This document shows, in pieces, positions 23,841-38,125 of a stretch of 64,000 nucleotides of DNA. The notes under the pieces were generated by a model, which saw only the letters and a program-made list of their open reading frames with translations, ran no database searches and was not told the DNA's origin. A program made the translations under genes and the position numbers. The DNA is from a virus, in the IMG/VR virus record IMGVR_UViG_3300021168_000013; one strand, given 5' to 3'. Each line of letters begins with the position of its first letter. Positions within the stretch are counted from its first letter, which is position 1.

Positions 23841-24645
23841 TTTATTTGGAGGCACTGGATTCATTGGTAGTAATTTTAAACAATTATACGGTGAGGATGT
23901 GTTTGTTCATCCACGGGAAGATAACGTTCCCACAACAGATAATGTACTTTACATGATAAGTACCACACACAATTATCATGTATTTGATGATATTCATAAA
24001 GACGTGGACACCAATCTTACTAAATTATTGAGCGTGTTACAGCATTGTAAGGATAAATCTCTAACGTTTAACTTCGTAAGTAGTTGGTTTGTGTACGGGA
24101 AATGTCATTTACCAGCACGAGAAGAAACTACGTGTAATCCAAAAGGTTTTTATAGTATAACCAAGAAATGTGCGGAGGATTTAATTATAAGTTACTGCAA
24201 AACATTTGGAATAAAATATCGCATTTTGAGACTATGCAATGTATATGGCAAAGATGACGCGAATGTATCTAAACAAAAAAATGCTTTACAATATCTAATT
24301 GATGAAATAAAAAAAGGAAACACAATCAATTTATATTATAATGGAGATTTTTTTAGAGACTATATGCATGTCATGGATGTATGTAAAGCAATTTATTTGT
24401 GTATCATCATGTCACAACCAAATCAAATTATAAATATCGGGAGTGGCAGACCTCAGAATTTCAGAGAATTGATAGATTTTACTATAAAGGAAACTGGGAA
24501 CAATGTTATCATTAACAATGTTGATGCTTCCGATTTTCATAAATTGGTTCAGACAGAAAGCATGTATCTGGAGGTATCCAAATTAGAATCACTTGGATTT
24601 AAACAAGAAATTGACATTTATAGTGGTATAAGAAGCTTACTGTAA
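23830..24645 (+). CDS. NAD-dependent epimerase/dehydratase
   Basis: GGTGFIG, SSWFVYG, YSITK (YxxxK), RLCNVYG. Confidence 0.9.
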   Translation: MKIDLFGGTGFIGSNFKQLYGEDVFVHPREDNVPTTDNVLYMISTTHNYHVFDDIHKDVDTNLTKLLSVLQHCKDKSLTFNFVSSWFVYGKCHLPAREETTCNPKGFYSITKKCAEDLIISYCKTFGIKYRILRLCNVYGKDDANVSKQKNALQYLIDEIKKGNTINLYYNGDFFRDYMHVMDVCKAIYLCIIMSQPNQIINIGSGRPQNFRELIDFTIKETGNNVIINNVDASDFHKLVQTESMYLEVSKLESLGFKQEIDIYSGIRSLL

Positions 24646-25431
24646 TGATTTCTCATTAGTGTTAGAGTCGTGTTTCGGCAATCTTCCCCATTTATACTTG
24701 AAGTATTCAAAACATGCATTTTCAGTTTCTTGATTTGATTTGATTTTATCAGGAGTTCTAGTTCCAAGAGACACAAAATGATAAAAATGGCAATTATATG
24801 TTCTAAGCATTTTCATTCCAGCCATCTTACATTTCATGAAGAATTCCCAATCAACAACCCATGGTCCCGGATAATTTTCATCAAATCCACCGATTCTTAG
24901 ATAATCATTCTTGTGTATCAAGAAAGGAAATGTCGATCCACACTCGTCTTTAATATGTTGTTTTTTTAGGATATATTCTAATCGTATAGCACGTTCGGAT
25001 TTCAAAAATTCATCCAAGTTAAACACACTTGGATCAGTACCTAGATTTTTAATATAGAACTGTTTAAACATACTAGAATTTGGTTCTATTTGATTGGCTG
25101 TCAAAACACTGTTTGGTTCATAGTGGCCTTGTAATTTATCATCCCAACCATTAGGGAATACGTTATCATCCTGCACATGAAATACCAAATCATTTGAGGC
25201 ATTACAATGTCCATAGTTCATGGCTCTTATCATACCAACGTTATCCTCTAGATTTAAAACGTCTATGTTATTTTTATATTTATCGAGAATGGCTTTATTA
25301 ATATCGTAAAATCCATCAACCACAACTATTATTTGATTCTTGTTAGTCTGACCAGTTATGGCTGACCGTAAACATAAATCTAAAGCTTCTGGTTCTTTGT
25401 ATGTTGGTATGATAACCGATATTTTATTCAT
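24637..25431 (-). CDS. Glycosyltransferase family 2
   Basis: SVIIPTY, VVVDG, QDDNVF, GGFDENY...DWEF. Confidence 0.85.
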   Translation of the reverse strand: MNKISVIIPTYKEPEALDLCLRSAITGQTNKNQIIVVVDGFYDINKAILDKYKNNIDVLNLEDNVGMIRAMNYGHCNASNDLVFHVQDDNVFPNGWDDKLQGHYEPNSVLTANQIEPNSSMFKQFYIKNLGTDPSVFNLDEFLKSERAIRLEYILKKQHIKDECGSTFPFLIHKNDYLRIGGFDENYPGPWVVDWEFFMKCKMAGMKMLRTYNCHFYHFVSLGTRTPDKIKSNQETENACFEYFKYKWGRLPKHDSNTNEKSLQ

Positions 25432-26129
25432 ATTTTGGCCCAATCAACCAATGGAGTTAGCCAAGGTATTTCACTATGTGTGGATTTACCGGGAATACAT
25501 GATACTATGGAACGATTATATATTTGAACTAATTCACAACATGCTTCATAGTCTCTTGGATAAGAAGTCAATAAGTATTTTTCCCATATATCTTTATCTT
25601 TCTTAATAACATCACCATTTACGGCAAACGTCATTGTTACTGAATTTGTAAGTTTCCAGTGTATTGATTTGGTTAATACCACCCTAGTAATCTCGCCACC
25701 CCCATCGATCTGTGGATTTCCACCCATGTTGGCATCTATATATTTATCAGGATGATCATATAGAGTAGCATAATTACTAACTGATAATCCTTCTTTAAGA
25801 AGTTTAAACGAATTCGGTAGATGAAAATAATCATCTTCCACGAAATATGCAGTATCTTTATCACCAATGGTTTCACAGCACTTTCTCATACAATGTCTAA
25901 ACGTGTGAGCATTGTTTAATTTGGTTTCTTCTATTTTAATGTTAGATTTTTCTTTCGATCTAATAAATGACATTAATGCTGGTTCAGTTACATTGTCAGC
26001 GGCAATAAGTATATCATTTTCGGGAAAATCAAATTCGGCAAGGAAATTGTCCAGACAATGTTGTTTGGTAGCATTGGACAGTCTGTTCTTTTTATAAGAA
26101 TTATTGCTGATTCTGTAATATATCTTCAT
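25428..26129 (-). CDS. GT-A fold glycosyltransferase-like protein
   Basis: YFVEDDYFH DxD-like motif inside the glycosylation operon. Confidence 0.6.
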   Translation of the reverse strand: MKIYYRISNNSYKKNRLSNATKQHCLDNFLAEFDFPENDILIAADNVTEPALMSFIRSKEKSNIKIEETKLNNAHTFRHCMRKCCETIGDKDTAYFVEDDYFHLPNSFKLLKEGLSVSNYATLYDHPDKYIDANMGGNPQIDGGGEITRVVLTKSIHWKLTNSVTMTFAVNGDVIKKDKDIWEKYLLTSYPRDYEACCELVQIYNRSIVSCIPGKSTHSEIPWLTPLVDWAKI

Positions 26130-26334
26130 TTTGTTCCTTAAATACTTCTATACATAATACGTTCTTATCATTCACCATTACCATAGTTCCATCTTTCTTA
26201 AGAAACTTAGTAAATTGACCTTGTGATATAGATGATGACACTATTCCACTAAATGTTCGCTTTTCTCCACCAACAAAATGGATTATTTGGGTAACGGTAT
26301 CTCCCTGACTATTAACTGATGATTTTAGATTCAT
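26101..26334 (-). CDS. Small beta-rich hypothetical protein
   Basis: 77 aa from ATG 26334 (ATGA overlap with upstream stop). Confidence 0.6.
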   Translation of the reverse strand: MNLKSSVNSQGDTVTQIIHFVGGEKRTFSGIVSSSISQGQFTKFLKKDGTMVMVNDKNVLCIEVFKEQNEDILQNQQ

Positions 26335-27134
26335 ATACTTATACATTCCTGATTTATATTATGATAATGACATACACCAATCTCTTCTAGAAATATATTT
26401 TTATGACTACAATCGCATACTTTATAATTCTCCACTAAGTTTAACAATTCATTGAATGCAGCATCTGATATTAAATGTTTACATTTGAATTTGTTTCTAA
26501 TCACACATTTTGCCAACAATTTCTCACAACTGAAGTTTGGAATATATTCCCATACTTTACCATTAAAATTACGAACCGAATTGCAATAATTGTATGCGTC
26601 GTCCACATCCTTTTCATTATTGATATAATCCACTGTGTTTTTTATTATATAAAAATTGGTTTGGGGATATAAATAATCATCGGTCATGTAGTTAGCCATA
26701 TAATTTTGAATATTGTGATCGAATTTATTTAATCCTGAATATCCTATTGCTTGAAGGAAATAAAAATCATATTCATCCGTAACAGGATACTTTAGCAATC
26801 TATCTCCCAATAATATATCATTTACTCCCTTGTATATAAAGTTTATAGGTAACATCTTAGCATAATTAACCACGGCATTATCGCTATCCATGTATCCAAT
26901 GGTATGTCCTCTGTTTTTTTTGGGCGGAAGGATTATAACATCTTTGCCAAATACTGTCCTCCATACGGCATCATAATCAGATAGATATGGTTCTGCCACA
27001 TCTGAGCAATTTTGATGAACTACTATATAATTAAATTGGGACATGATTGAATAGTTATGTAACAACATACGATTCAATGTCTCTATGTCTTCTTTTTTAC
27101 TTAAATGTCCTATACTACAATAACAGTTATTCAT
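26331..27134 (-). CDS. Hypothetical protein, possible glycosyltransferase
   Basis: 267-aa coupled ORF in the glycosylation operon; NRGHTIG..D and NDILL motifs. Confidence 0.5.
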   Translation of the reverse strand: MNNCYCSIGHLSKKEDIETLNRMLLHNYSIMSQFNYIVVHQNCSDVAEPYLSDYDAVWRTVFGKDVIILPPKKNRGHTIGYMDSDNAVVNYAKMLPINFIYKGVNDILLGDRLLKYPVTDEYDFYFLQAIGYSGLNKFDHNIQNYMANYMTDDYLYPQTNFYIIKNTVDYINNEKDVDDAYNYCNSVRNFNGKVWEYIPNFSCEKLLAKCVIRNKFKCKHLISDAAFNELLNLVENYKVCDCSHKNIFLEEIGVCHYHNINQECISI

Positions 27135-28018
27135 GCAATCTTATTTAAAATATATCTAGCCATTTCCTTGGTGGTACAGTGTTGTTTAAAATGTAAAAAA
27201 CATTCATCCATTATATCATAATATTTAGTAATGTCAAAGTCTTTGTTTATTAACTCATTACCACGCTTAATTGCATCTTTCGGTAAAGTAGTCAATGTAT
27301 GTTCCGGACATTTATCTATGTCTAAGAAATAAGGCATACAGTAATTACCCATTATCTCATAATGTCTCATGCAATCCCATCCTGCTTTTTTCATTGTAAC
27401 TCCATAATATGAGTTATTATAATCTTTGAAATAATCAGTTTCATTACTGAAAATATACGTTGATTTTTCTCCGGGAATCACAGTACCATAGGATTGAATC
27501 TTCTCTTTATTAGGAGTGGATATCTTACATGTTGGATATGAAAATGATATTGGAAATACATTAGAATGATATGAATAACACTCTCTTTTGAAATACGGAT
27601 GAATATCAGATAAAGAATGAACATAACAATCATCATTGCCATCTAATAATACTATTTTCTTAGGATCGTATACTTTTTTTACAAGTTCAAAATAATCAAG
27701 ACATCTTCTGGAAGCACCATACACTATTAAATCATAATATTTATTCTCGATTTTAGATTGTATATTAATTCTATTAGGATTGTCACCATCAATTAACCAA
27801 AAAGCCGTCATTCCTCCCCACAAACATTGTTTTGGTATTTTGGATTGATTTTCTTTATATAATGATATGATCGGGGTGGAATCCACTATTTCATCTATAA
27901 CACCATCTTTAAACAATTCATAGAAACCATAGTAGGTTAAGTCATTTAAATAATCAGATATATAACCACCACTACATGCTGCAATAGAATTGTGATTTGT
28001 AATATACAATACTTTCAT
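27131..28018 (-). CDS. Putative GT-B glycosyltransferase (GWDCMRHYEI family)
   Basis: LLDGND, YFKRE, KKAGWDCMRHYEIMGNYCMPYF. Confidence 0.55.
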   Translation of the reverse strand: MKVLYITNHNSIAACSGGYISDYLNDLTYYGFYELFKDGVIDEIVDSTPIISLYKENQSKIPKQCLWGGMTAFWLIDGDNPNRINIQSKIENKYYDLIVYGASRRCLDYFELVKKVYDPKKIVLLDGNDDCYVHSLSDIHPYFKRECYSYHSNVFPISFSYPTCKISTPNKEKIQSYGTVIPGEKSTYIFSNETDYFKDYNNSYYGVTMKKAGWDCMRHYEIMGNYCMPYFLDIDKCPEHTLTTLPKDAIKRGNELINKDFDITKYYDIMDECFLHFKQHCTTKEMARYILNKIA

Positions 28019-28019
28019 A

Positions 28020-28844
28020 TTATAATGTTATCCATCCTTCTGGGAATAGAGTATCTATATTGGTTATATGAGTGACCGATTTACCGAACCAATGACTTTT
28101 TGGTGCCACTGTCATAGTGTCTTTGTTTTTGTTAAGATAAGCCGCCCACCAGCTAAATGTACTGTTACCTAATATATTATGATTGCATAGACTCATGAAC
28201 ACCAAATCGGATATGTTAGTTTCATTTTCTATAAAATTGACATTGTCTGGAAACATTCCCTTAGCAAAGGCGATATTGTCTGAAAAAACATTTATGTTTT
28301 GTATATCACGTAAATCGCATATCATATTGATAGCTTCTTGATAATACTCGGATGGCACAATAGGAAACGAATCTCTTAAAAGATGTCTATCTCCGCCTAC
28401 TCGTACATGGACAGCTATTGAATCGGGTATTATATTCTTATATTTATCCCGAACATAATTAACATGACTATCTCTGAACTTGTAATAATCATTCACAATT
28501 TTATATTTAATGTCGTTAAAATAACGATCACTCTGGAAATAACCAGATATCAACATGTTGTCTTTGGCTTTAACCGGTTGATATGAAAAATTATATTCTG
28601 GATTAGTGGGATGAACTGCATCATTATGATGATATGTATCATATCGCTGTGAAAACTCATTAACAAAATTGAATTTATGAGAAAATAGGTTAGGAATCTC
28701 TAATGGTCTATGATCGTTTGATATATAACAATCACGAATCTTTAAGATTTCATAATTTGTTCCTAGTTTTTCCGTAAGAGACAAACAGTTGGCCAGTTGG
28801 AATAAGTTATTACCCAATTCTCCAGAAAACATGCATGATATCAT
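28020..28844 (-). CDS. GT11 alpha-1,2-fucosyltransferase-like
   Basis: GELGNNLFQ, GYFQS, HVRVGGD, ILGNSTFSWWAAYL. Confidence 0.88.
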   Translation of the reverse strand: MISCMFSGELGNNLFQLANCLSLTEKLGTNYEILKIRDCYISNDHRPLEIPNLFSHKFNFVNEFSQRYDTYHHNDAVHPTNPEYNFSYQPVKAKDNMLISGYFQSDRYFNDIKYKIVNDYYKFRDSHVNYVRDKYKNIIPDSIAVHVRVGGDRHLLRDSFPIVPSEYYQEAINMICDLRDIQNINVFSDNIAFAKGMFPDNVNFIENETNISDLVFMSLCNHNILGNSTFSWWAAYLNKNKDTMTVAPKSHWFGKSVTHITNIDTLFPEGWITL

Positions 28845-29662
28845 AGACTATCATTATAAAGTATCGAAATACCTTTGTCGAGAGAAATCTTTGGTTCCCA
28901 GTAGTTTAATATATATGGATCAGGATCATTTACCATGCCCATTTGAACATTATCTACCTTATCACCTTTTATAATTTCGCAACCAGATAGACCACTTATT
29001 ACATTGGCAATATCCATGATGGAATTCCATTGAAAACTGGTGATATGATAATTTTTAGCTCTATCCAATGTGAAATAATTTTTAGCCAAGATTAATAGTG
29101 CTCTAGCACAATCCTCACCAAATAAGAATTGACGGACTTCATCTCCAGTAGTTCTCATTTTTATACTCTTATCTTTGATAGACATATTAATGAAATCGGT
29201 AATTACATGGGATTTCTCTTCATTGGTTTCATAACCATAAACATTCCAAAATTTAACGTTAATACCATTTAACGCGTCAGTGTGTCTCTCACCAATGGAT
29301 TTTAATATACCATAAGTAGAGTGATGCATGTTTGACATCTGAGAGGACGCGAATATAAACGGTTTGTTTAAGGATTTGAGTAATTCAAATGTATTACTCA
29401 TTATTCTCATGTTATTGTCTATGAATTCATAGGTATTTTGGTATTTGGCCATATACTTTGATCCACCGATATCAAATGCCAGAAAATGAACGAAATCCGA
29501 CTTAATTATCATGTCCGTAAGCAATAGATTGTTTCGAACTCGTAGATCATATAATCCATTATCCTCTATATCAAAGGTGAGTACCTCTTCATTTACAGAT
29601 TTTAAATATTGAACCAAATATTGGCCAACTTGTCCTGACGATCCTAATACTAGATGTTTCAT
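28841..29662 (-). CDS. NAD-dependent epimerase/dehydratase
   Basis: LGSSGQVG, FASSQM, YGILK, NVYG. Confidence 0.85.
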   Translation of the reverse strand: MKHLVLGSSGQVGQYLVQYLKSVNEEVLTFDIEDNGLYDLRVRNNLLLTDMIIKSDFVHFLAFDIGGSKYMAKYQNTYEFIDNNMRIMSNTFELLKSLNKPFIFASSQMSNMHHSTYGILKSIGERHTDALNGINVKFWNVYGYETNEEKSHVITDFINMSIKDKSIKMRTTGDEVRQFLFGEDCARALLILAKNYFTLDRAKNYHITSFQWNSIMDIANVISGLSGCEIIKGDKVDNVQMGMVNDPDPYILNYWEPKISLDKGISILYNDSL

Positions 29663-30474
29663 ATTATTTTTGGGGTCTTATAGTAGTTTTTTAACGTTTC
29701 GATATTCTCATTCTTTAGTTTAACATATAACCTTTGATTTCTATCGGTGTATTCCTTGTATTTATTTTGTAATACTCTCTCATGCTGCACATGGAATACT
29801 GGCCCGTATACTCTTGTCATTTTGATATTAAATAGATTCATCTTAAAGATGTATTCAGAATCCTCATATCCCCAACCATTAAATTCTTCATTGAAATATA
29901 CTAGATCACCAAGCAATCTCTTATTAACTATCATACAAAATCCCGTAGCATAAGCAATTGGTGGATATCCATCCTCGATATGACGATGTAACATCATTTT
30001 TGGAGCAATCTTAAATTGAAGATTGTAAAAGTCATAATCCGTCTCAAATTCCTTAAAGTAATCACGCTCAATGTGATATTCTGGATTGGTATAAGGAAAT
30101 ACCAAAGGAAATTTATCCTGACACAATTCCACACCTAATTCAATCTGTTCTTTTGGTAATAGAATATCACAGTCATATATTACACATATATCATTACTAG
30201 CAATCTTCAATCCTTCGTTGATTATCTTTGATCTATAATATGGGTCAGGCAAATCACAGGAAAATATGCGTATATTGCTCAATTCATATTCATGAAATAA
30301 TTTAGTCAGATATTGTACGCAATTAACCTCTTCGATTGGTGTGTTATTTTGTAATATCACTAAGTATTCAGCTTCATCTTTAAATTGGTAGGTGAGATAA
30401 ATCAACGATCTCAATAGGTTCGTTAGTCTATCAACACTGTCGTATTTAAACTGAATTATAAACGTAAACTTCAT
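29659..30474 (-). CDS. GT2/GT7-type glycosyltransferase
   Basis: YDCDILL (DxD), FNEEFNGWGYEDSEY, FHVQH. Confidence 0.8.
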   Translation of the reverse strand: MKFTFIIQFKYDSVDRLTNLLRSLIYLTYQFKDEAEYLVILQNNTPIEEVNCVQYLTKLFHEYELSNIRIFSCDLPDPYYRSKIINEGLKIASNDICVIYDCDILLPKEQIELGVELCQDKFPLVFPYTNPEYHIERDYFKEFETDYDFYNLQFKIAPKMMLHRHIEDGYPPIAYATGFCMIVNKRLLGDLVYFNEEFNGWGYEDSEYIFKMNLFNIKMTRVYGPVFHVQHERVLQNKYKEYTDRNQRLYVKLKNENIETLKNYYKTPKII

Positions 30475-31298
30475 AATAAGTAATTTTCGGCGATGTAATC
30501 ATCAGCAACTGGAAATTCACAGGCGATTTTAAAATTTTCTTCTATATATGGCATCATGGAATTATACAAATCATCAGTACAATCATTTAGATTGAAATTA
30601 TCTGAGAATATTACACCTTTCGGATTGAAATACTGTTCCACAACTGATTTACTGCCCCTATATATTGGAACTGTATATGTTGTCATTGGACTGGTCAATC
30701 TCTCCGTAAAATATGCATCACTAACATCATTTTCCATAGATACCGTGAAATTGTAGTTCTTATAGGCATCATCAGTTATTTTAGGTTCGTTTTCTTGTCC
30801 TCTCCCATATAAATTGAGTTTATTTTTATTATCAACCGCATATTCTACACGATATTTGTGTCCAGCCAACGTATAATTCTTAGAAACCAACATACTTATC
30901 ATTCGGTACTTAGTGTGGCGTTTTCTATTTTCGGATAATGTCCATGGCGCGGCATTGGATATAGCATAGTAAAATGGATGCCCAATCTGAACCAAATCCA
31001 TCTGACAGGTGAATATAAATTTATAATTATTCTGAAATTGTTGTAAATTTTTTAATATAACATCTATTACTCCCTGATTGTATCCTCGGGATTCCAATAA
31101 CCACCCGTATTTGTTAGGGTTATTATTCAACCCACTCAATATATTTCCGTCTATATACATATCAAAATCATAGTCACCGACATAATTTTTTGGTAACCAT
31201 TGAATATGTTTAGATGTATTCATATGAGAAGAACACACTGAATCATTTTCATTTGGGGAAATACATCCCCCAATTGGTTTCATTTTTAGCTTACTCAT
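30471..31298 (-). CDS. GT10-like glycosyltransferase
   Basis: WLLESR, FTVSMEN...YFTERL...VPIYRG. Confidence 0.7.
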   Translation of the reverse strand: MSKLKMKPIGGCISPNENDSVCSSHMNTSKHIQWLPKNYVGDYDFDMYIDGNILSGLNNNPNKYGWLLESRGYNQGVIDVILKNLQQFQNNYKFIFTCQMDLVQIGHPFYYAISNAAPWTLSENRKRHTKYRMISMLVSKNYTLAGHKYRVEYAVDNKNKLNLYGRGQENEPKITDDAYKNYNFTVSMENDVSDAYFTERLTSPMTTYTVPIYRGSKSVVEQYFNPKGVIFSDNFNLNDCTDDLYNSMMPYIEENFKIACEFPVADDYIAENYLL

Positions 31299-32116
31299 AA
31301 TTTAATCCATTCATCTAAAAACAAATCTTTTATATCCAATTTCTTAAGTGATCCACCGAACCAATAGTTGGCTGGAGCAACGGTTATATGACCTTTATGT
31401 TTATTGAGATAAGCTGACCACCAACTAAATGTACTGTTACCTAATATATTGTGATTACACATACTCATAAATGTTAAATCTGTTATATTAGATTCATTCT
31501 CTATGAAGTTTACTGATTCTGGAAATATTTCTTTAGCTATGGACATTTTATCGGAAAATACATTAATATTCTGTATATTAGATGAATCATACACAATGGC
31601 CAATGCTCTTTCATAGTATTCACTAGGCACTAATGGAAATATATCAGAACACAGTGATCTATCGCCTCCACCTCTAAAATGAATAGCAATTGAATTAGGT
31701 AATATGGATTTATACTTATCATTTATGTAATCAATGGTATCAGGATTAAAAGCGAAATAGTCATTGACAAGTTTATCTTTTATGTTCTCAAAGTATTTAC
31801 CGCTCTGAAAATAACCATTCAATTTTACGTTATCTTCATGGGGAATTGGTGAGTATGCAAATGTATAATAAGGACTATCTTGCTCGAATAGATCAGGGTG
31901 ACGATAATGACCATACTCTTGAGAATAACTATTAACGAAATTGAATTTATGAGAAAACAATTTACTTACCTCAATGGGACGGTCTTCATTGGAAATCCAA
32001 CAATGTCTGGATGCTGATATTTCATAATCAACATTTATAGCATCCTTTATAGAAAGACATGTGGCTAATTGAAACAAATTATTTCCTAACTCTCCATGTA
32101 ATCTACTGGTTATCAT
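31295..32116 (-). CDS. GT11 alpha-1,2-fucosyltransferase-like (paralog of 28020-28844)
   Basis: GELGNNLFQ, GYFQS, HFRGGGD, ILGNSTFSWW; start at 32116 by TAATG overlap. Confidence 0.88.
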   Translation of the reverse strand: MITSRLHGELGNNLFQLATCLSIKDAINVDYEISASRHCWISNEDRPIEVSKLFSHKFNFVNSYSQEYGHYRHPDLFEQDSPYYTFAYSPIPHEDNVKLNGYFQSGKYFENIKDKLVNDYFAFNPDTIDYINDKYKSILPNSIAIHFRGGGDRSLCSDIFPLVPSEYYERALAIVYDSSNIQNINVFSDKMSIAKEIFPESVNFIENESNITDLTFMSMCNHNILGNSTFSWWSAYLNKHKGHITVAPANYWFGGSLKKLDIKDLFLDEWIKL

Positions 32117-32673
32117 TATTTTAGTTTCCATCCTTCCCAGTCCCATTCATGATTATATGTCTGATCATGTGTAACACTTAGTAAATTTTGACAGGTTTTT
32201 CTTTCCTCGTCATGATTTTGTATTACTTTATGGAATTGAATTTGAATAAATTTTATATTATCGGCATGTTTACTTGCACAGAGTGTTTTGATTATCTCAA
32301 ATTCCCCGCCTTCACAATTTAATTCTAATAAATCTATAGATGTTATGGATTGATCTGAAATAAATTGTGATATATCCATAATATCAATAGATTCCGTTTT
32401 TCCTTTTGGACTGAATACCGATGTTCCTGCTCCGTTTATCTGGATATTTCTTTTTTCTGTTTTATTTCCTAACCCAAAATTATGGACTTTTATCTTGGGA
32501 TTGTTTTGGTATTTATTGACCAATCCATTGTAATAATCCCTTACTGGCTCAAAAATGTAAATATTGCAGTGATATGTGTCAAACATTTCTTGAGAGAATT
32601 CCCCAACGAACCCACCAACCTCAAATATTAGAGAATTTTCATTTAATGGGTGATTTTTTCTGTCATCTATCAT
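32116..32673 (-). CDS. FkbM family methyltransferase
   Basis: FEVGGFVG, IFEP, LELNCEGGE, QIQFH. Confidence 0.85.
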   Translation of the reverse strand: MIDDRKNHPLNENSLIFEVGGFVGEFSQEMFDTYHCNIYIFEPVRDYYNGLVNKYQNNPKIKVHNFGLGNKTEKRNIQINGAGTSVFSPKGKTESIDIMDISQFISDQSITSIDLLELNCEGGEFEIIKTLCASKHADNIKFIQIQFHKVIQNHDEERKTCQNLLSVTHDQTYNHEWDWEGWKLK

Positions 32674-33320
32674 ATTTTCCTATAAAGTGTGTCGTATTTA
32701 TATTTTTGCACAATCTCATAGTTTTTTGATAACATGAATGTGTGAAATTCATCTTCGTGTTTTATGTTGGATTCATATTGATGAAAATTAACAGTTTCGG
32801 TAAGTATGAACTTTACAGGCACATCACCAATGCCATTGATGATATTTTTTTCATAGGATTGGGCGTCAATATGCATGTAATCAATATGTGTGATGTCATT
32901 TTCTTCACAAACTGTGTCCAATCGTTTCACTGTGACATCATATCCATTCATGTCAAACTTACATCTATCAAATTCAATTTGCTCATCTACAGTCCCGTTT
33001 TTTATAATGGGTTTGTTGATAGACCCTGCCTGTTTATGGTATCTACCCTCGATGGATAAACTTGGATAAAATTTCACCACATCATTTTTATCCCCGAGGG
33101 CATAAGGATAAGTATGTATTCCAGCATCGATAGCAGAATTTCTATGATTTCTTATGTTTTCAATATCTGGTTCAAATGAATATACTTTGGCTTTTGGAAA
33201 CCATTGCTTAAAATATATCCCAGTAATGAAATCATATGCTCCCACATCAAATAATATTAAATCTGAGTGGTTTATACCTAGGTTACTTATTATAGTTTGT
33301 TCATCAGGCTCTTGTAACAT
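32670..33320 (-). CDS. FkbM family methyltransferase
   Basis: FDVGAYD, SFEP, MHIDAQSYE. Confidence 0.85.
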   Translation of the reverse strand: MLQEPDEQTIISNLGINHSDLILFDVGAYDFITGIYFKQWFPKAKVYSFEPDIENIRNHRNSAIDAGIHTYPYALGDKNDVVKFYPSLSIEGRYHKQAGSINKPIIKNGTVDEQIEFDRCKFDMNGYDVTVKRLDTVCEENDITHIDYMHIDAQSYEKNIINGIGDVPVKFILTETVNFHQYESNIKHEDEFHTFMLSKNYEIVQKYKYDTLYRKI

Positions 33321-33321
33321 G

Positions 33322-33990
33322 TTAGATTTTAAATCCTTTATTTAGTTCGTCGCTAAAATCTTTATTATATCTTAGATTGGTGGCGACCTGTTTTTCTATA
33401 GTCTTATTATGGATTATTGATAATTCAAACTCCGATGGAAGTTTGGATGTTATCTTAGCACCCTCTATTTTTTCATGTAGAGGTCTTTCCCATTTTAAAT
33501 GTGGAAGGTTCTTAAATAATCTAAATTGATAATCCGGAAAATTTACAATGTTTCTTCCTTCGTATAAAGATAATTTCCATCCCCAATCCGCTGCATGTTT
33601 TTCATTGACTCCAATAAAATCATTTATTCGAGGTATTAAAAAACAATCCACACTGGGATTGGACTCAATGATATCCTTTATATTAATCATTAATGTGTCA
33701 GTGGGAACTTCGTCATCATCCAATTGTAATATGTATTTACCAATACACAAGTCTTTTCCAAAATTTTTGTGCATGGAGTAATGGTTATCCAACGCATGTT
33801 TATATATAAAGAAGTTCTGTTTTTCTTTATATGAATCCAATAAATCCAAAGTGGTATCATTATCACTAAAGTCGTCTAATATGACACATTCGTTTCCATC
33901 TATGTACTTCTCAATACAATCTAACAAATCTTTTAATTGATTTGTTCCATTCTTGGTTGTAATTAGATAACTTATGAAAGGTGCATTCAT
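33322..33990 (-). CDS. Glycosyltransferase family 2
   Basis: ILDDFS, LQLDDDE, PDYQFRLF, HEKI. Confidence 0.85.
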   Translation of the reverse strand: MNAPFISYLITTKNGTNQLKDLLDCIEKYIDGNECVILDDFSDNDTTLDLLDSYKEKQNFFIYKHALDNHYSMHKNFGKDLCIGKYILQLDDDEVPTDTLMINIKDIIESNPSVDCFLIPRINDFIGVNEKHAADWGWKLSLYEGRNIVNFPDYQFRLFKNLPHLKWERPLHEKIEGAKITSKLPSEFELSIIHNKTIEKQVATNLRYNKDFSDELNKGFKI

Positions 33991-35324
33991 ACTACACTCT
34001 TGGATATATCATTTACTGGTTCCGATTTCTTGAGTTTTGGTAACTCTATTTTTTTGAGCCGAGGAAGCACAATTTTTTGTTCTATGGAAAATTCCGGCAC
34101 ATACTTATCGAGTAATCCATGCAAGTGTTTGTCCATGGCTTGTAAACTAAACTTATCAGCATTTTCCAATCTCAACGCTTCAGCTTTATTAAGAGATTTT
34201 TCACTATAATTGTTAAATAAGCTTATAATTTTCTCTTCCGCCAAACTGTAAGAAACATAGAACCAATTACCTTCTTTAATTAGCCATTGATTTGCAGAAG
34301 AAGGATCAATTTGTTTTACTGTCCCATCTAACAATCCAGCATATTTCGCATTTAAGAAATCAATATGTCCACTCCAATTAGGAGCCAATATTGGTTTACC
34401 ACTCAATGTAGCCAATAACAATGGGTGACCGAATCCTTCACCATGTGTAAAGCTAATGTGTACTTTGACTTTTTCATGATTAAGTAATGCGTTCATCTCG
34501 ACATCAGAAAGTTCTCCGTGTAATAGATAGACTTTTGGTAATTTACCAGATACACTGTCTTGGATTTCCTTGATTTTCTTTAACATGTCAGTTCTATCCG
34601 TGATACTGAAATTTACACCACTAGTTTTTAAAATCAAACATGGTTGTTTTTCTTTATCTTTAAAGGCATTGAGAAATGTCTTCACAAGATTTCCTATGTC
34701 TTTTCTGTCGTTGTATATTCCACCATGTGTCCATTGACCTACAAACAAGAAAGCGAAATTCTCGGGGATAGATGACATAACACCTTCTATAGTTTGAATT
34801 TTTTCATCGGTCTTTTTATAAATGCTGGTGTTTGCTCCCCAAAAACATACTTCGATTGGTTTGATACACTTTAATGGTTCTTTTCTTCCATCCTGATGTT
34901 GTTTAGTGTAATTGGCATTCTCAAAAACTTTTTTAACGAATGTAGAGGTAACTATACCTAAATTCATACGATTCATCCCCTCAATGAATTCCCCACTTGG
35001 TTTATCGACCTCGATACCAGCAGTTATACCAACATTGTATTTCCCGACTGGTTGAAATTCATTTGGAATGGATATTTGAATAAACAAATCAGGTTGTTTA
35101 TTCAAAGGTTGTCTCATAAAACAACTTAGAAGCTTTCTATCTTCGTCTGTGGCATTACTATCCTCGATAGTTTTTGGGGGACATCCTCCCCACTTAGTTG
35201 GCGCAATCAATAATTCATATTTATCATAACGAAGAATCGATTTGGCAATATCAGTTGATAGATCACCATAACCGCTTCGACTATACACGGGACACTGCAT
35301 CACACATAAAGGTTTGTTACTCAT
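33987..35324 (-). CDS. Glycosyltransferase family 4-like
   Basis: SRSGYG, TAGIE, FLFVGQW, HGEGFGHPLL. Confidence 0.85.
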   Translation of the reverse strand: MSNKPLCVMQCPVYSRSGYGDLSTDIAKSILRYDKYELLIAPTKWGGCPPKTIEDSNATDEDRKLLSCFMRQPLNKQPDLFIQISIPNEFQPVGKYNVGITAGIEVDKPSGEFIEGMNRMNLGIVTSTFVKKVFENANYTKQHQDGRKEPLKCIKPIEVCFWGANTSIYKKTDEKIQTIEGVMSSIPENFAFLFVGQWTHGGIYNDRKDIGNLVKTFLNAFKDKEKQPCLILKTSGVNFSITDRTDMLKKIKEIQDSVSGKLPKVYLLHGELSDVEMNALLNHEKVKVHISFTHGEGFGHPLLLATLSGKPILAPNWSGHIDFLNAKYAGLLDGTVKQIDPSSANQWLIKEGNWFYVSYSLAEEKIISLFNNYSEKSLNKAEALRLENADKFSLQAMDKHLHGLLDKYVPEFSIEQKIVLPRLKKIELPKLKKSEPVNDISKSVV

Positions 35325-35911: not shown

Positions 35912-36907
35912 TTATTTAACAGCATGGTTATGTCCAAGCCTGATTAATTCCTCTTGAATTTTTGCTTTATCAATAACTGGTATTTCACCACCGATACTAT
36001 CAAATGGTGGTCTTTGACCTCTAAACTCCTCAGCGGTATGAATGCTAAAATGATTGCTTGGAACAAAGTTATCAAATACATACTTGGCACCCAATTTAAA
36101 TTGTGCAGCCAAGTTCTTATGATTGATACCACCTTCATTCATTGCCCATCTACGACCTTCTGAACCACAAATCTCACGTTGTTCATCGGTCATCAGATAC
36201 CAGAACATGATAGCTTCTGCTACGTCTTCCCATTTACAAATATCATCAAATATATATGGAGTCGGTACACTTCCTTGAATATAACGTGCCGTCGGCCACA
36301 CAGGTTTAGCCCATATACCATGTTTTTTATATTTACCTGTATGATTGCTTCCAAACGTTATACCAAATTCAAAATCAGCACCATTTTCACACTTCTGATC
36401 GATTTGATCTTGTAATCCACCAGTAACATTAACAATGATTGGGGTTCCACTCATTATAGATTCAGCCGTACTTAGTCCAAACCCTTCATTGCTTGTTATA
36501 TTAACGGTGATGTCAGCAATGTTATAATTAAGATTCATTTCTTCTGGAGCACATTTAGCTTCGTCAAATATAACATTATATTTATTACATAATGCTTCTT
36601 TGACTGCCGGTAAATCCGTGCCAGCCTCTAATACTTTCTCAGTATGCATTAATAATACACATTTATCTGCTTGTTCTGGAGTCAAATTATCACAGAACGC
36701 TCTAAATGCTAAGATTAGATTACTGGTTCTCTTACGTTGAATATTACGACTGTTGTAAAATACAACAAATTCATATTCTTTATCACCAAACAGCTTGCGT
36801 CGGTGTGCTTTGAGAGCCTTGTCATCTTTTGGTAGAGGTCTAAACAAATCACTGTTTATACCATGGGGAACCAAGTGAATTAATGTTTTTCCGTTTTTTA
36901 GAGGCAT
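35912..36907 (-). CDS. GT4 glycosyltransferase, C-terminal fragment
   Basis: Begins near VPHGI (end of GT4 N-domain); NSRNIQRK, NEGFGLSTAESIMSG, TGGLQDQ. Confidence 0.85.
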   Translation of the reverse strand: MPLKNGKTLIHLVPHGINSDLFRPLPKDDKALKAHRRKLFGDKEYEFVVFYNSRNIQRKRTSNLILAFRAFCDNLTPEQADKCVLLMHTEKVLEAGTDLPAVKEALCNKYNVIFDEAKCAPEEMNLNYNIADITVNITSNEGFGLSTAESIMSGTPIIVNVTGGLQDQIDQKCENGADFEFGITFGSNHTGKYKKHGIWAKPVWPTARYIQGSVPTPYIFDDICKWEDVAEAIMFWYLMTDEQREICGSEGRRWAMNEGGINHKNLAAQFKLGAKYVFDNFVPSNHFSIHTAEEFRGQRPPFDSIGGEIPVIDKAKIQEELIRLGHNHAVK

Positions 36908-36910
36908 ATG

Positions 36911-37333
36911 TTATTCCTTAATGACGATCTTATCAAATGATAGTTTTAATTGTATGATAGCAATATCAGTATGTCCTGCCCAATCCAAGTCAGGCCCAGT
37001 TAATTCCACAATGGCACAATCAGTGGCCACCCAAATTTCAGCAACTTCTCCAGTTGGATGCAATTCCTTAACCTCCAATTCAATTTTTGGGTATGTACCC
37101 ATAGTATTGAACAACTTAAAATATGTATTATATCCAAGAACTTCGTATATATTTATCACAATATTATTGGACTTATTATATTGGGTGATTTCTGGTCGCC
37201 CGATCCCCTTAATAATGTGACTGGGGACAAATATTTTATCATCCAGAAATAATTTAGCAATAAACCTATTAGGCTGTTTAGGATTCCACGAGGTATTGTA
37301 CACCTCAGATATGTTTATTTTGTTACCGATCAT
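36911..37333 (-). CDS. Tail-tube (T4 gp19-like) paralog, internally shortened
   Basis: PKQPNRF, P..IIK...RP.IT, L.P.GEV.E.W, DLDW, I.L.L.FD pattern of gp19-type tubes. Confidence 0.65.
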   Translation of the reverse strand: MIGNKINISEVYNTSWNPKQPNRFIAKLFLDDKIFVPSHIIKGIGRPEITQYNKSNNIVINIYEVLGYNTYFKLFNTMGTYPKIELEVKELHPTGEVAEIWVATDCAIVELTGPDLDWAGHTDIAIIQLKLSFDKIVIKE

Positions 37334-37890
37334 ACATTTTCCTTTTTTAGTAAGTTACCAACCATATCAAACTCGTTTCCATAAATATTACAACAATTTT
37401 CAGCACCAATAACATGTTTATGAATATTGTTACTCTGTTTACTGATAGCAAATACTCCATCGCAACTCATATATCCCGGACGATTCCACATTGGATATGG
37501 AACATCGTCCCATAATGCCCAGTAGACAATTGGGATTTTGGTTCTGATCTGTCTCTCAATCGAAAATAACCATCCATAGAATCTGGGATCGGTGATCATA
37601 CATACCATGTCTGGTTTTTCTTGATTGATGATAGCAAACAGAAGATTCTCGTCACCATACCCATTAACTGGATAAAGTCTGACATATGCATCTTTTACTC
37701 CAGTCATTTGTCTTGTAGCTTCATCCAAATCAACAACTTTTCCAGCTTCAGGATGTTGGATAGCACCAGCCATACAACAAATATCATATTCGTCAACGAG
37801 TCCCAATACCAATTCTCTAAGTTGTGTTGCCACACCAGAATGCATTCGTAAGTCGTCTCCTATCCAAAGCATTTTCTTTTTCTTTGTCAT
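37330..37890 (-). CDS. GT4 glycosyltransferase, N-terminal fragment
   Basis: KMLWIGDDLRMHSGVA, TDPRFY, WDDVPYP, FAISKQS; lacks the C-terminal Rossmann domain. Confidence 0.8.
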   Translation of the reverse strand: MTKKKKMLWIGDDLRMHSGVATQLRELVLGLVDEYDICCMAGAIQHPEAGKVVDLDEATRQMTGVKDAYVRLYPVNGYGDENLLFAIINQEKPDMVCMITDPRFYGWLFSIERQIRTKIPIVYWALWDDVPYPMWNRPGYMSCDGVFAISKQSNNIHKHVIGAENCCNIYGNEFDMVGNLLKKENV

Positions 37891-37891
37891 A

Positions 37892-38125
37892 TTATAATAA
37901 GCTTGATCCTGTAATAGTAAGTGAAGTGGTTTGTGCAGCACTACTTAATGTGGGCATAATACAATTATAAACTTTATCTCGAAATACCTCATCATTAACA
38001 TATAACCACATGCTTCTAATGACTAAATCTTTAAGATAAAACCTATGTCGGATATTTAATATTTTGAATTCGTTATAGAGTGAGTTCTCTATTTTTATTG
38101 TAGTGGTAGTTACTGTGTCATTCAT
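37892..38125 (-). CDS. Small ribbon-helix-helix-like protein
   Basis: TTTIKIENSLYNEFK...LKDLVIRSMWLY beta-alpha-alpha pattern; start at ATG 38125. Confidence 0.5.
   Translation of the reverse strand: MNDTVTTTTIKIENSLYNEFKILNIRHRFYLKDLVIRSMWLYVNDEVFRDKVYNCIMPTLSSAAQTTSLTITGSSLL

Follow-up and report, generated by a model that had tools for sequence, protein, structure and literature searches.

The NrdA gene of Aeromonas phage Aeh1 is split by mobE into NrdA-a and NrdA-b, and the tails at the break point are essential for activity (PMC3045599). Among glycosyltransferases (GTs), Alg13/Alg14 is a heterodimeric UDP-GlcNAc transferase (PMC9527342, PMC8993221). Here we describe a locus in IMG/VR virus record IMGVR_UViG_3300021168_000013, of which the whole stretch of 64,000 nucleotides analysed is called the window, where the N-terminal and C-terminal parts of a GT are encoded by separate genes (the N-half and the C-half) on either side of a gene for a predicted tail-tube-fold protein. 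We consider it likely that the GT is a two-gene enzyme whose halves would reassemble by means of a docking tail and head, that the junction between them is a permissive site, and that its present occupant is a relocated tail-tube paralogue that the GT does not need. The locus comprises the following features.

37330-37890, minus strand: N-half of the GT (186 residues), with its ATG at 37890; a longer GTG frame extends to 37941.
37330-37333, minus strand: ATGA overlap between the stop of the N-half and the start of the tube paralogue, read from the sequence.
36911-37333, minus strand: tail-tube-fold paralogue (140 residues) between the GT halves, assigned from a fold model and homologues.
36908-36910, minus strand: 3-nucleotide spacer (cat) between the TAA stop of the tube paralogue and the ATG of the C-half, read from the sequence.
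35912-36907, minus strand: C-half of the GT (331 residues), carrying the donor-binding Glycos_transf_1 domain (Pfam PF00534) and starting at an MP.K head.

Read from the sequence, four cistrons are chained at this locus (a small open reading frame (ORF), the N-half, the tube paralogue and the C-half), and the coupling of the last three through an ATGA overlap and a 3-nucleotide gap, as the initial annotation had reported it, agrees with the ORF coordinates. The same junctions occur in a 925-nucleotide JGI contig (L003, ~97% identical) and in a 4.1-kb ENA contig; because these independent contigs span both junctions, misassembly, a concern of the initial annotation, is excluded. Differences between L003 and the window are concentrated in the tail and the head, with the frame kept. 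With a start and a stop of its own, the insert forms a separate ORF that leaves zero non-coding space, a layout that fits neither a group I/II intron nor an intein, and a search of the region for RNA families gave no Rfam match at E values up to 1. No transposase was found at the three-gene locus, so that the earlier statement that transposase and intron signatures are absent also stands, and counts of internal promoter- or terminator-like sites were not above those of shuffled controls. Two candidate signatures of a cassette were set aside: a flanking 14-nucleotide A-rich direct repeat (12/14 matches) was no better than two unrelated repeats in the same 650 nucleotides, and the G+C content of the insert (0.348 vs 0.36-0.37 in the halves) was uninformative. 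A blastn search of the region against the 'phages' collection returned no match.

The two GT genes align as complementary parts of one enzyme. The C-half matches Glycos_transf_1 at 34.3 bits against a cut-off of 26.4 (E = 2.1e-8) and carries an intact EX7E motif (NEGFGLSTAE), with E141 and E149 invariant in family alignments, as is the N-terminal DD.R..SG motif. The N-half belongs to no Pfam or PHROG family, yet it is homologous to the N-terminal part of single-chain GTs, and its protein-language-model features resemble Glyco_transf_4 clusters at 0.93, a value that serves as a lead only. The relative recovered by tblastn from a cultured phage is the 480-residue single-chain GT of Flavobacterium phage immuto, to which the N-half aligns over residues ~15-175 and the C-half over ~178-470, with only a few residues between. 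Both parts are present in all IMG/VR loci with the GT (160/160), in one ORF in 156 of the 160; the remaining four (L012, L015, L110 and L115) have an isolated in-frame stop or frameshift away from the linker, which could be sequencing errors, pseudogenes or recoding. Against the PDB, a profile of intact members matches GT4 enzymes, with chlorovirus B736L (3oy2; E = 7e-14) best, followed by TreT and BshA, in each case over the C-terminal domain only. The initial annotation had proposed a two-chain form of a normally one-chain enzyme and had called for intact homologues on which to map the break; the complementary alignment to the immuto GT, together with the 156 single-ORF loci, bears the proposal out and places the break in the predicted interdomain linker, between a putative N-terminal acceptor-side domain and a C-terminal donor domain bearing EX7E. 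These comparisons support a GT4-type two-chain enzyme whose halves would be the two domains of a normally single-chain GT-B protein.

Relative to L164, a diverged locus with the same order of N-half, tube gene and C-half, synonymous sites are saturated (proportion of synonymous differences, pS, ~0.8), and amino acid identity is 82% in the N-half (non-synonymous divergence, dN, 0.14) and 76% in the C-half (dN 0.17). Because such identities have been kept at saturated synonymous divergence, both halves are, on this substitution pattern, under strong purifying selection that began before the window and L164 lineages diverged. The low dN and the intact motifs also speak against decay of either half, which the initial annotation had named as a possible failing of its own proposal.

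The split is much more widespread than the insert. Scanning metagenome contigs with the C-half alignment gave 80 loci, which were annotated with the window proteins and a hidden Markov model of the tube family. The order small ORF, N-half, C-half, dUTPase, with no gene between the halves, occurs at 27 loci, one under a GOS-style AACY accession, that come from more than 20 independent assemblies; the distance from the N-half stop to the C-half ATG ranges from -10 to +30 nucleotides and is at most 10 nucleotides in all but one. Except in two outlying loci, the N-half of these insert-free split genes ends in the tail ENC.S..G(D/E)FD..GN(I/L)IKENV and the C-half begins with the head MP(V/F/L)K(G/N)K.LLH(Y/L)VPHG. 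The same two elements are found in the window, where the N-half tail is ENCCNIYGNEFDMVGNLLKKENV (form ENCC..G.EFD..GNL.KKENV) and the C-half head is MPLKNGKTLIHLVPHG; the extra N-half tail (G.FD..GN.IKENV) amounts to 14-17 residues. An independent split at the same linker, with a 10-nucleotide gap, is present in the cultured Microcystis phage Mel-JY01. On a maximum-likelihood tree of 78 GTs, the window and L164 fall inside an all-split clade of 26, itself within a clade of 38 with 99% support, and seven intact genes are nested in the clade of 38, in a subclade of nine with 97% support. The split occurs naturally in a clade of uncultured, mostly freshwater T4-like myoviruses. Because the same break, tail and head recur in at least 27 insert-free relatives, and because the split predates the insertion on the GT tree, the insert is not the cause of the split. 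Two elements of the initial annotation are thereby overturned, namely that the inserted gene had cut the GT in two and that the N-half ends in a novel tail, which is instead the conserved tail of the split-homologue family.

The junction between the halves is a permissive landing site. At L165 and L275 it holds a gene for a 305-residue HNH-type homing endonuclease (phrog_559, E = 2.5e-68; phrog_9084; phrog_7140), at L278 a 214-residue ORF with weak restriction-endonuclease-like matches together with a 59-residue ORF, and at L271 ORFs of 80 and 167 residues that matched no family; a tube-like gene lies in it only in the window lineage and L164. The occupant in the window is thus the tube paralogue rather than a homing endonuclease, the HNH gene being found at the same junction in L165 and L275. 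As in other genes in pieces, both pieces are under selection and have extra tails at the break. In L275 (L275:4992-5975), whose junction holds the HNH gene, the C-half reads HPVLLGS in place of the conserved YVPHG, and this C-half may be decaying. Homologues of the same HNH gene also occur at other boundaries near intact GTs (L277:5930-6703, L295:1-642 and L300:764-1714), either downstream of the GT or upstream of the small ORF. Because HNH homologues are found at several boundaries, the neighbourhood of the GT as a whole is a homing hot spot.

The middle ORF stays below sequence thresholds for a tube protein: PF06841 (gp19) scores 19.5 bits, below the cut-off of 28.2, and phrog_4542 (tail tube) gives E = 1.3e-3. 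Searches with it by tblastn against the 'phages' collection found no match, and a word-indexed protein search found a 99% twin only, while a full HMMER scan of 1.8 billion representatives recovered 32 homologues; 21 of 30 homologues match phrog_4542 (best E = 1.4e-11). With a 30-sequence alignment, AlphaFold2 returned a model with a predicted local distance difference test score (pLDDT) of 90 and a predicted template-modelling score (pTM) of 0.80, compared with a pLDDT of 37 from the single sequence. The top Foldseek matches of this model are Pvc1, Afp1, the tube of cyanophage A-1(L), T4 gp19 and Hcp (probability 1.0; TM-score normalised to the query, TMq, 0.63-0.72). The middle protein is clearly predicted to have the tail-tube (Hcp/gp19) fold, in agreement with the gp19-like assignment made initially.

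The broader tube family has at least 600 hits in IMG/VR. The canonical tube gene of these phages encodes 162-166 residues and directly follows the sheath gene in immuto and L200, whereas the window gene does not adjoin a sheath gene and lies in a glycosylation operon beside replication genes. On a tree of the family, canonical tubes form a tight, slowly evolving clade, and the window protein and the other GT-adjacent copies fall outside it on very long branches (end branches of 1-3.5 vs a canonical-clade median of 0.06). The GT-adjacent copies also lack two segments, of ~14 and ~13 residues, that are common to all canonical copies and that may be needed for polymerisation. Two copies, a canonical one close to the baseplate hub and one adjoining the GT, occur together on phage contig G001; in the complete genomes of immuto, Mel-JY01, G002 and G003 the canonical copy is the one detectable family member. 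Relative to L164, the paralogue is 45% identical (dN 0.54), and it differs from that of L003 by 10 synonymous changes and 1 non-synonymous one (omega ~0.02). Because of this excess of synonymous over non-synonymous changes against L003, the paralogue is a live gene. By sequence comparison, the paralogues evolve fast and form a group of their own, apart from the canonical, sheath-adjacent tube gene. On a 204-kb phage contig (L257:5400-6528), a 175-residue tube-like gene (P0012) lies between a canonical 162-residue tube gene and a T4_baseplate gene; its product lacks the same two segments as the GT-adjacent paralogues, and P0012 is a possible source of their lineage. Two other family members have uninformative gene contexts. 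A 775-residue protein (P0005) matches the first ~30 residues of the conserved core of the paralogue (query 19-45) in ten separate stretches, which suggests a repeat protein made up of copies of this short motif.

In 8 lineages the paralogue adjoins the GT. Its usual place is immediately upstream of an intact GT, as in L167, L210, L259 and L282; in L278 it precedes a split GT, in L165 it follows the C-half, and in the window lineage and L164 it lies inside the junction. The immediate upstream position is the one seen in the sister GT clade. In L082 the paralogue lies 2.4 kb upstream of the GT, beyond two other genes. The order of the window thus recurs, as the initial annotation had asked, in the diverged L164, where the middle protein is 45% identical and the halves 76-82%. 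The paralogue is absent from the available flanks of ~150 intact and at least 27 split relatives, which argues that the GT does not require it. An approximately unbiased (AU) test rejected the nine known GT-adjacent paralogues as one exclusive clade (p = 1e-4), but sequences of unknown gene context nest among them, and the result is hence uninformative.

The window covers the part of a large T4-like phage genome devoted to replication and nucleotide metabolism, with genes for a UvsX-like recombinase, a DnaB-like helicase, ribonucleotide reductase, a clamp loader and a family-B DNA polymerase. It includes a glycosylation operon of ~13 kb with two GT11-like genes, one GT10-like gene, a GT2 gene, two FkbM methyltransferase genes and an epimerase gene. 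The neighbours of the split GT in this operon are as follows.

37892-38125, minus strand: conserved small ORF (~77 residues) upstream of the N-half, with its stop 1 nucleotide before the N-half ATG.
24637-35324, minus strand: glycan-building island downstream in the same operon, with genes for a dUTPase, a 445-residue GT-B-like protein, a GT2, two FkbM proteins, two GT11-like and one GT10-like (fucosyltransferase-type) proteins, a GT-A-like protein and an epimerase.

By phmmer, a homologue of the small ORF lies immediately upstream of the GT in immuto, L164, L165, L167, L210 and most metagenome loci with an upstream flank. It matches no Pfam or PHROG family; its motif TT.K.EN.LY.EFK suggests a small DNA-binding protein. 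The dUTPase gene lies between two GT genes in ~30 of the 38 loci of the 38-member clade and in none of the relatives outside it.

In the account that we prefer, the N and C chains would reassemble without a covalent link into a GT-B heterodimer, with the N-half tail and the MP.K head of the C-half most likely acting as docking elements, by analogy with the NrdA tails of phage Aeh1. Translational coupling would give matched amounts of the two chains, and the tube paralogue would be made together with both. The paralogue most likely moved across the N-half while translational coupling was kept; the simplest route would start from the order tube, N-half, C-half, as in L278, and proceed through a tandem duplication of the tube gene and N-half, followed by loss of the outer copies, to the order of the window. 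Several points weigh against this account. The association of the halves and their docking through tail and head are features that we infer, and the route of the paralogue to the junction is conjectural, the flanking 14-nucleotide repeat being no stronger than background. The paralogue tree is poorly resolved, so that one or several acquisitions are possible. The polarity of split and intact states in the clade of 38 is, on the GT tree, ambiguous, and the tree requires that the GT was re-fused or that the split allele spread laterally.

Alternative interpretations concern mainly the role of the paralogue. Tail-tube proteins trigger a defence such as DSR2, and the paralogue might be an accessory gene independent of the GT that landed in a tolerant gene boundary; it could, for instance, be expressed early as a decoy for host defences triggered by tail tubes. 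Its very long branches relative to the canonical tube clade, its location in the replication and early-gene region and the unrelated selfish cargo in the same junction are all consistent with such a role, but repeated contact with the same GT across rearrangements would be unexpected for a free accessory gene, and no defence-related family was matched among those searched, which did not include PADLOC; we regard this as a possible but tentative explanation.

The initial annotation favoured a functional partnership. In the form considered here, the tube-fold protein would be a scaffold ring, an adaptor or an acceptor substrate of the heterodimeric GT, co-translated 1:1:1 with its halves, and would connect glycosylation with a tail-tube-like assembly. 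The direct contact of paralogue and GT in 8 lineages and three arrangements (upstream, inside and downstream), the tight coupling of the three-gene chain, and retention of its order while the tube protein diverged to 45% identity hint at such a link. However, the GT works without the paralogue in the ~150 intact and at least 27 split relatives that lack it in their available flanks, two genes and 2.4 kb separate paralogue and GT in L082, and homing-endonuclease genes occur at the same boundaries, so that a hot spot for insertion may account for the adjacency, which a passenger at a permissive site explains as well as a functional link does. We therefore think a partnership unlikely. It is also rather improbable, in our judgement, that the paralogue is a true third subunit or dedicated acceptor, either as an Hcp-like ring that would join the half-enzymes or as a protein itself glycosylated; if it were, a tail-tube protein would have been recruited into a glycan-building machine and its gene drawn into the junction of the enzyme to fix the stoichiometry.

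We likewise doubt that the paralogue is a virion part, that is, a second tube-like protein that would serve, for example, as initiator or terminator of the tube and whose gene lies away from the tail module. Its relative P0012 is encoded between a canonical tube gene and a T4_baseplate gene, both proteins lack the same two segments, and the window protein groups next to the P0012 clade in one tree; however, that grouping is a long-branch join that shifts in a second tree, and immuto, Mel-JY01, G002 and G003 manage with one detectable family member. Finally, misassembly, a pseudogene or two unrelated full enzymes, for which the unusual layout alone speaks, is hardly credible and is already refuted, since JGI and ENA contigs independently cover both junctions, each half aligns to its own part of a single-chain enzyme, the two parts being complementary and without overlap, and both halves are under purifying selection with catalytic motifs intact.

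Taken as a two-gene GT with a relocated tube paralogue at a permissive junction, the family offers the same viral GT-B in a single-chain form, in a two-chain form, and in two-chain forms that carry four different insert cargos, which amounts to a natural split-enzyme library that makes fission at the domain level, docking tails and possible re-fusion of the GT directly testable. In T4-like phages it carries the genes-in-pieces phenomenon beyond nucleotide metabolism to glycan building, and it points to an undescribed family of tail-tube paralogues that evolve fast and have their genes outside the tail module. For annotation, we caution that pipelines should not label the two halves as pseudogenes or as independent enzymes.

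The closest described system is Aeh1 NrdA, which resembles the window locus as an essential-type enzyme gene of a T4-like phage that a break at a tolerant position divides between two cistrons, with extra tails, and with a homing-endonuclease gene at the break, as seen here in L165 and L275. It differs in that the enzyme here is a GT-B, that most members have lost or never had the endonuclease, and that the occupant in the window is a tube paralogue; the tails, which are functional in Aeh1, are putative docking elements here. Alg13/Alg14, likened here by description, also has two Rossmann-like GT-B domains made as separate polypeptides that assemble into one enzyme, but it belongs to another GT family, is eukaryotic and membrane-anchored through Alg14, and involves no phage or mobile element. 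Among solved structures, the B736L protein of chlorovirus NY-2A (3oy2, GT4) is the closest to the family profile in sequence, and it is a virus-encoded GT-B; in contrast to the window enzyme it is a single chain, the match spans the donor domain only, and its host range and glycan are unrelated. For the middle protein, T4 gp19, Pvc1 and Afp1 share the predicted fold over the whole 140 residues (TMq 0.63-0.72), and the canonical tube of immuto-like phages (phrog_4542) has detectable sequence homology to it; unlike that tube, the paralogue is not beside the sheath gene, lacks the ~14- and ~13-residue segments, has a rate of evolution many times higher and is part of a glycosylation operon. Genes in pieces are a known kind in T4-like phages, and so are split GT-B enzymes, of which Alg13/Alg14 is an example; what is unusual here is a tail-tube paralogue as the occupant of the junction.

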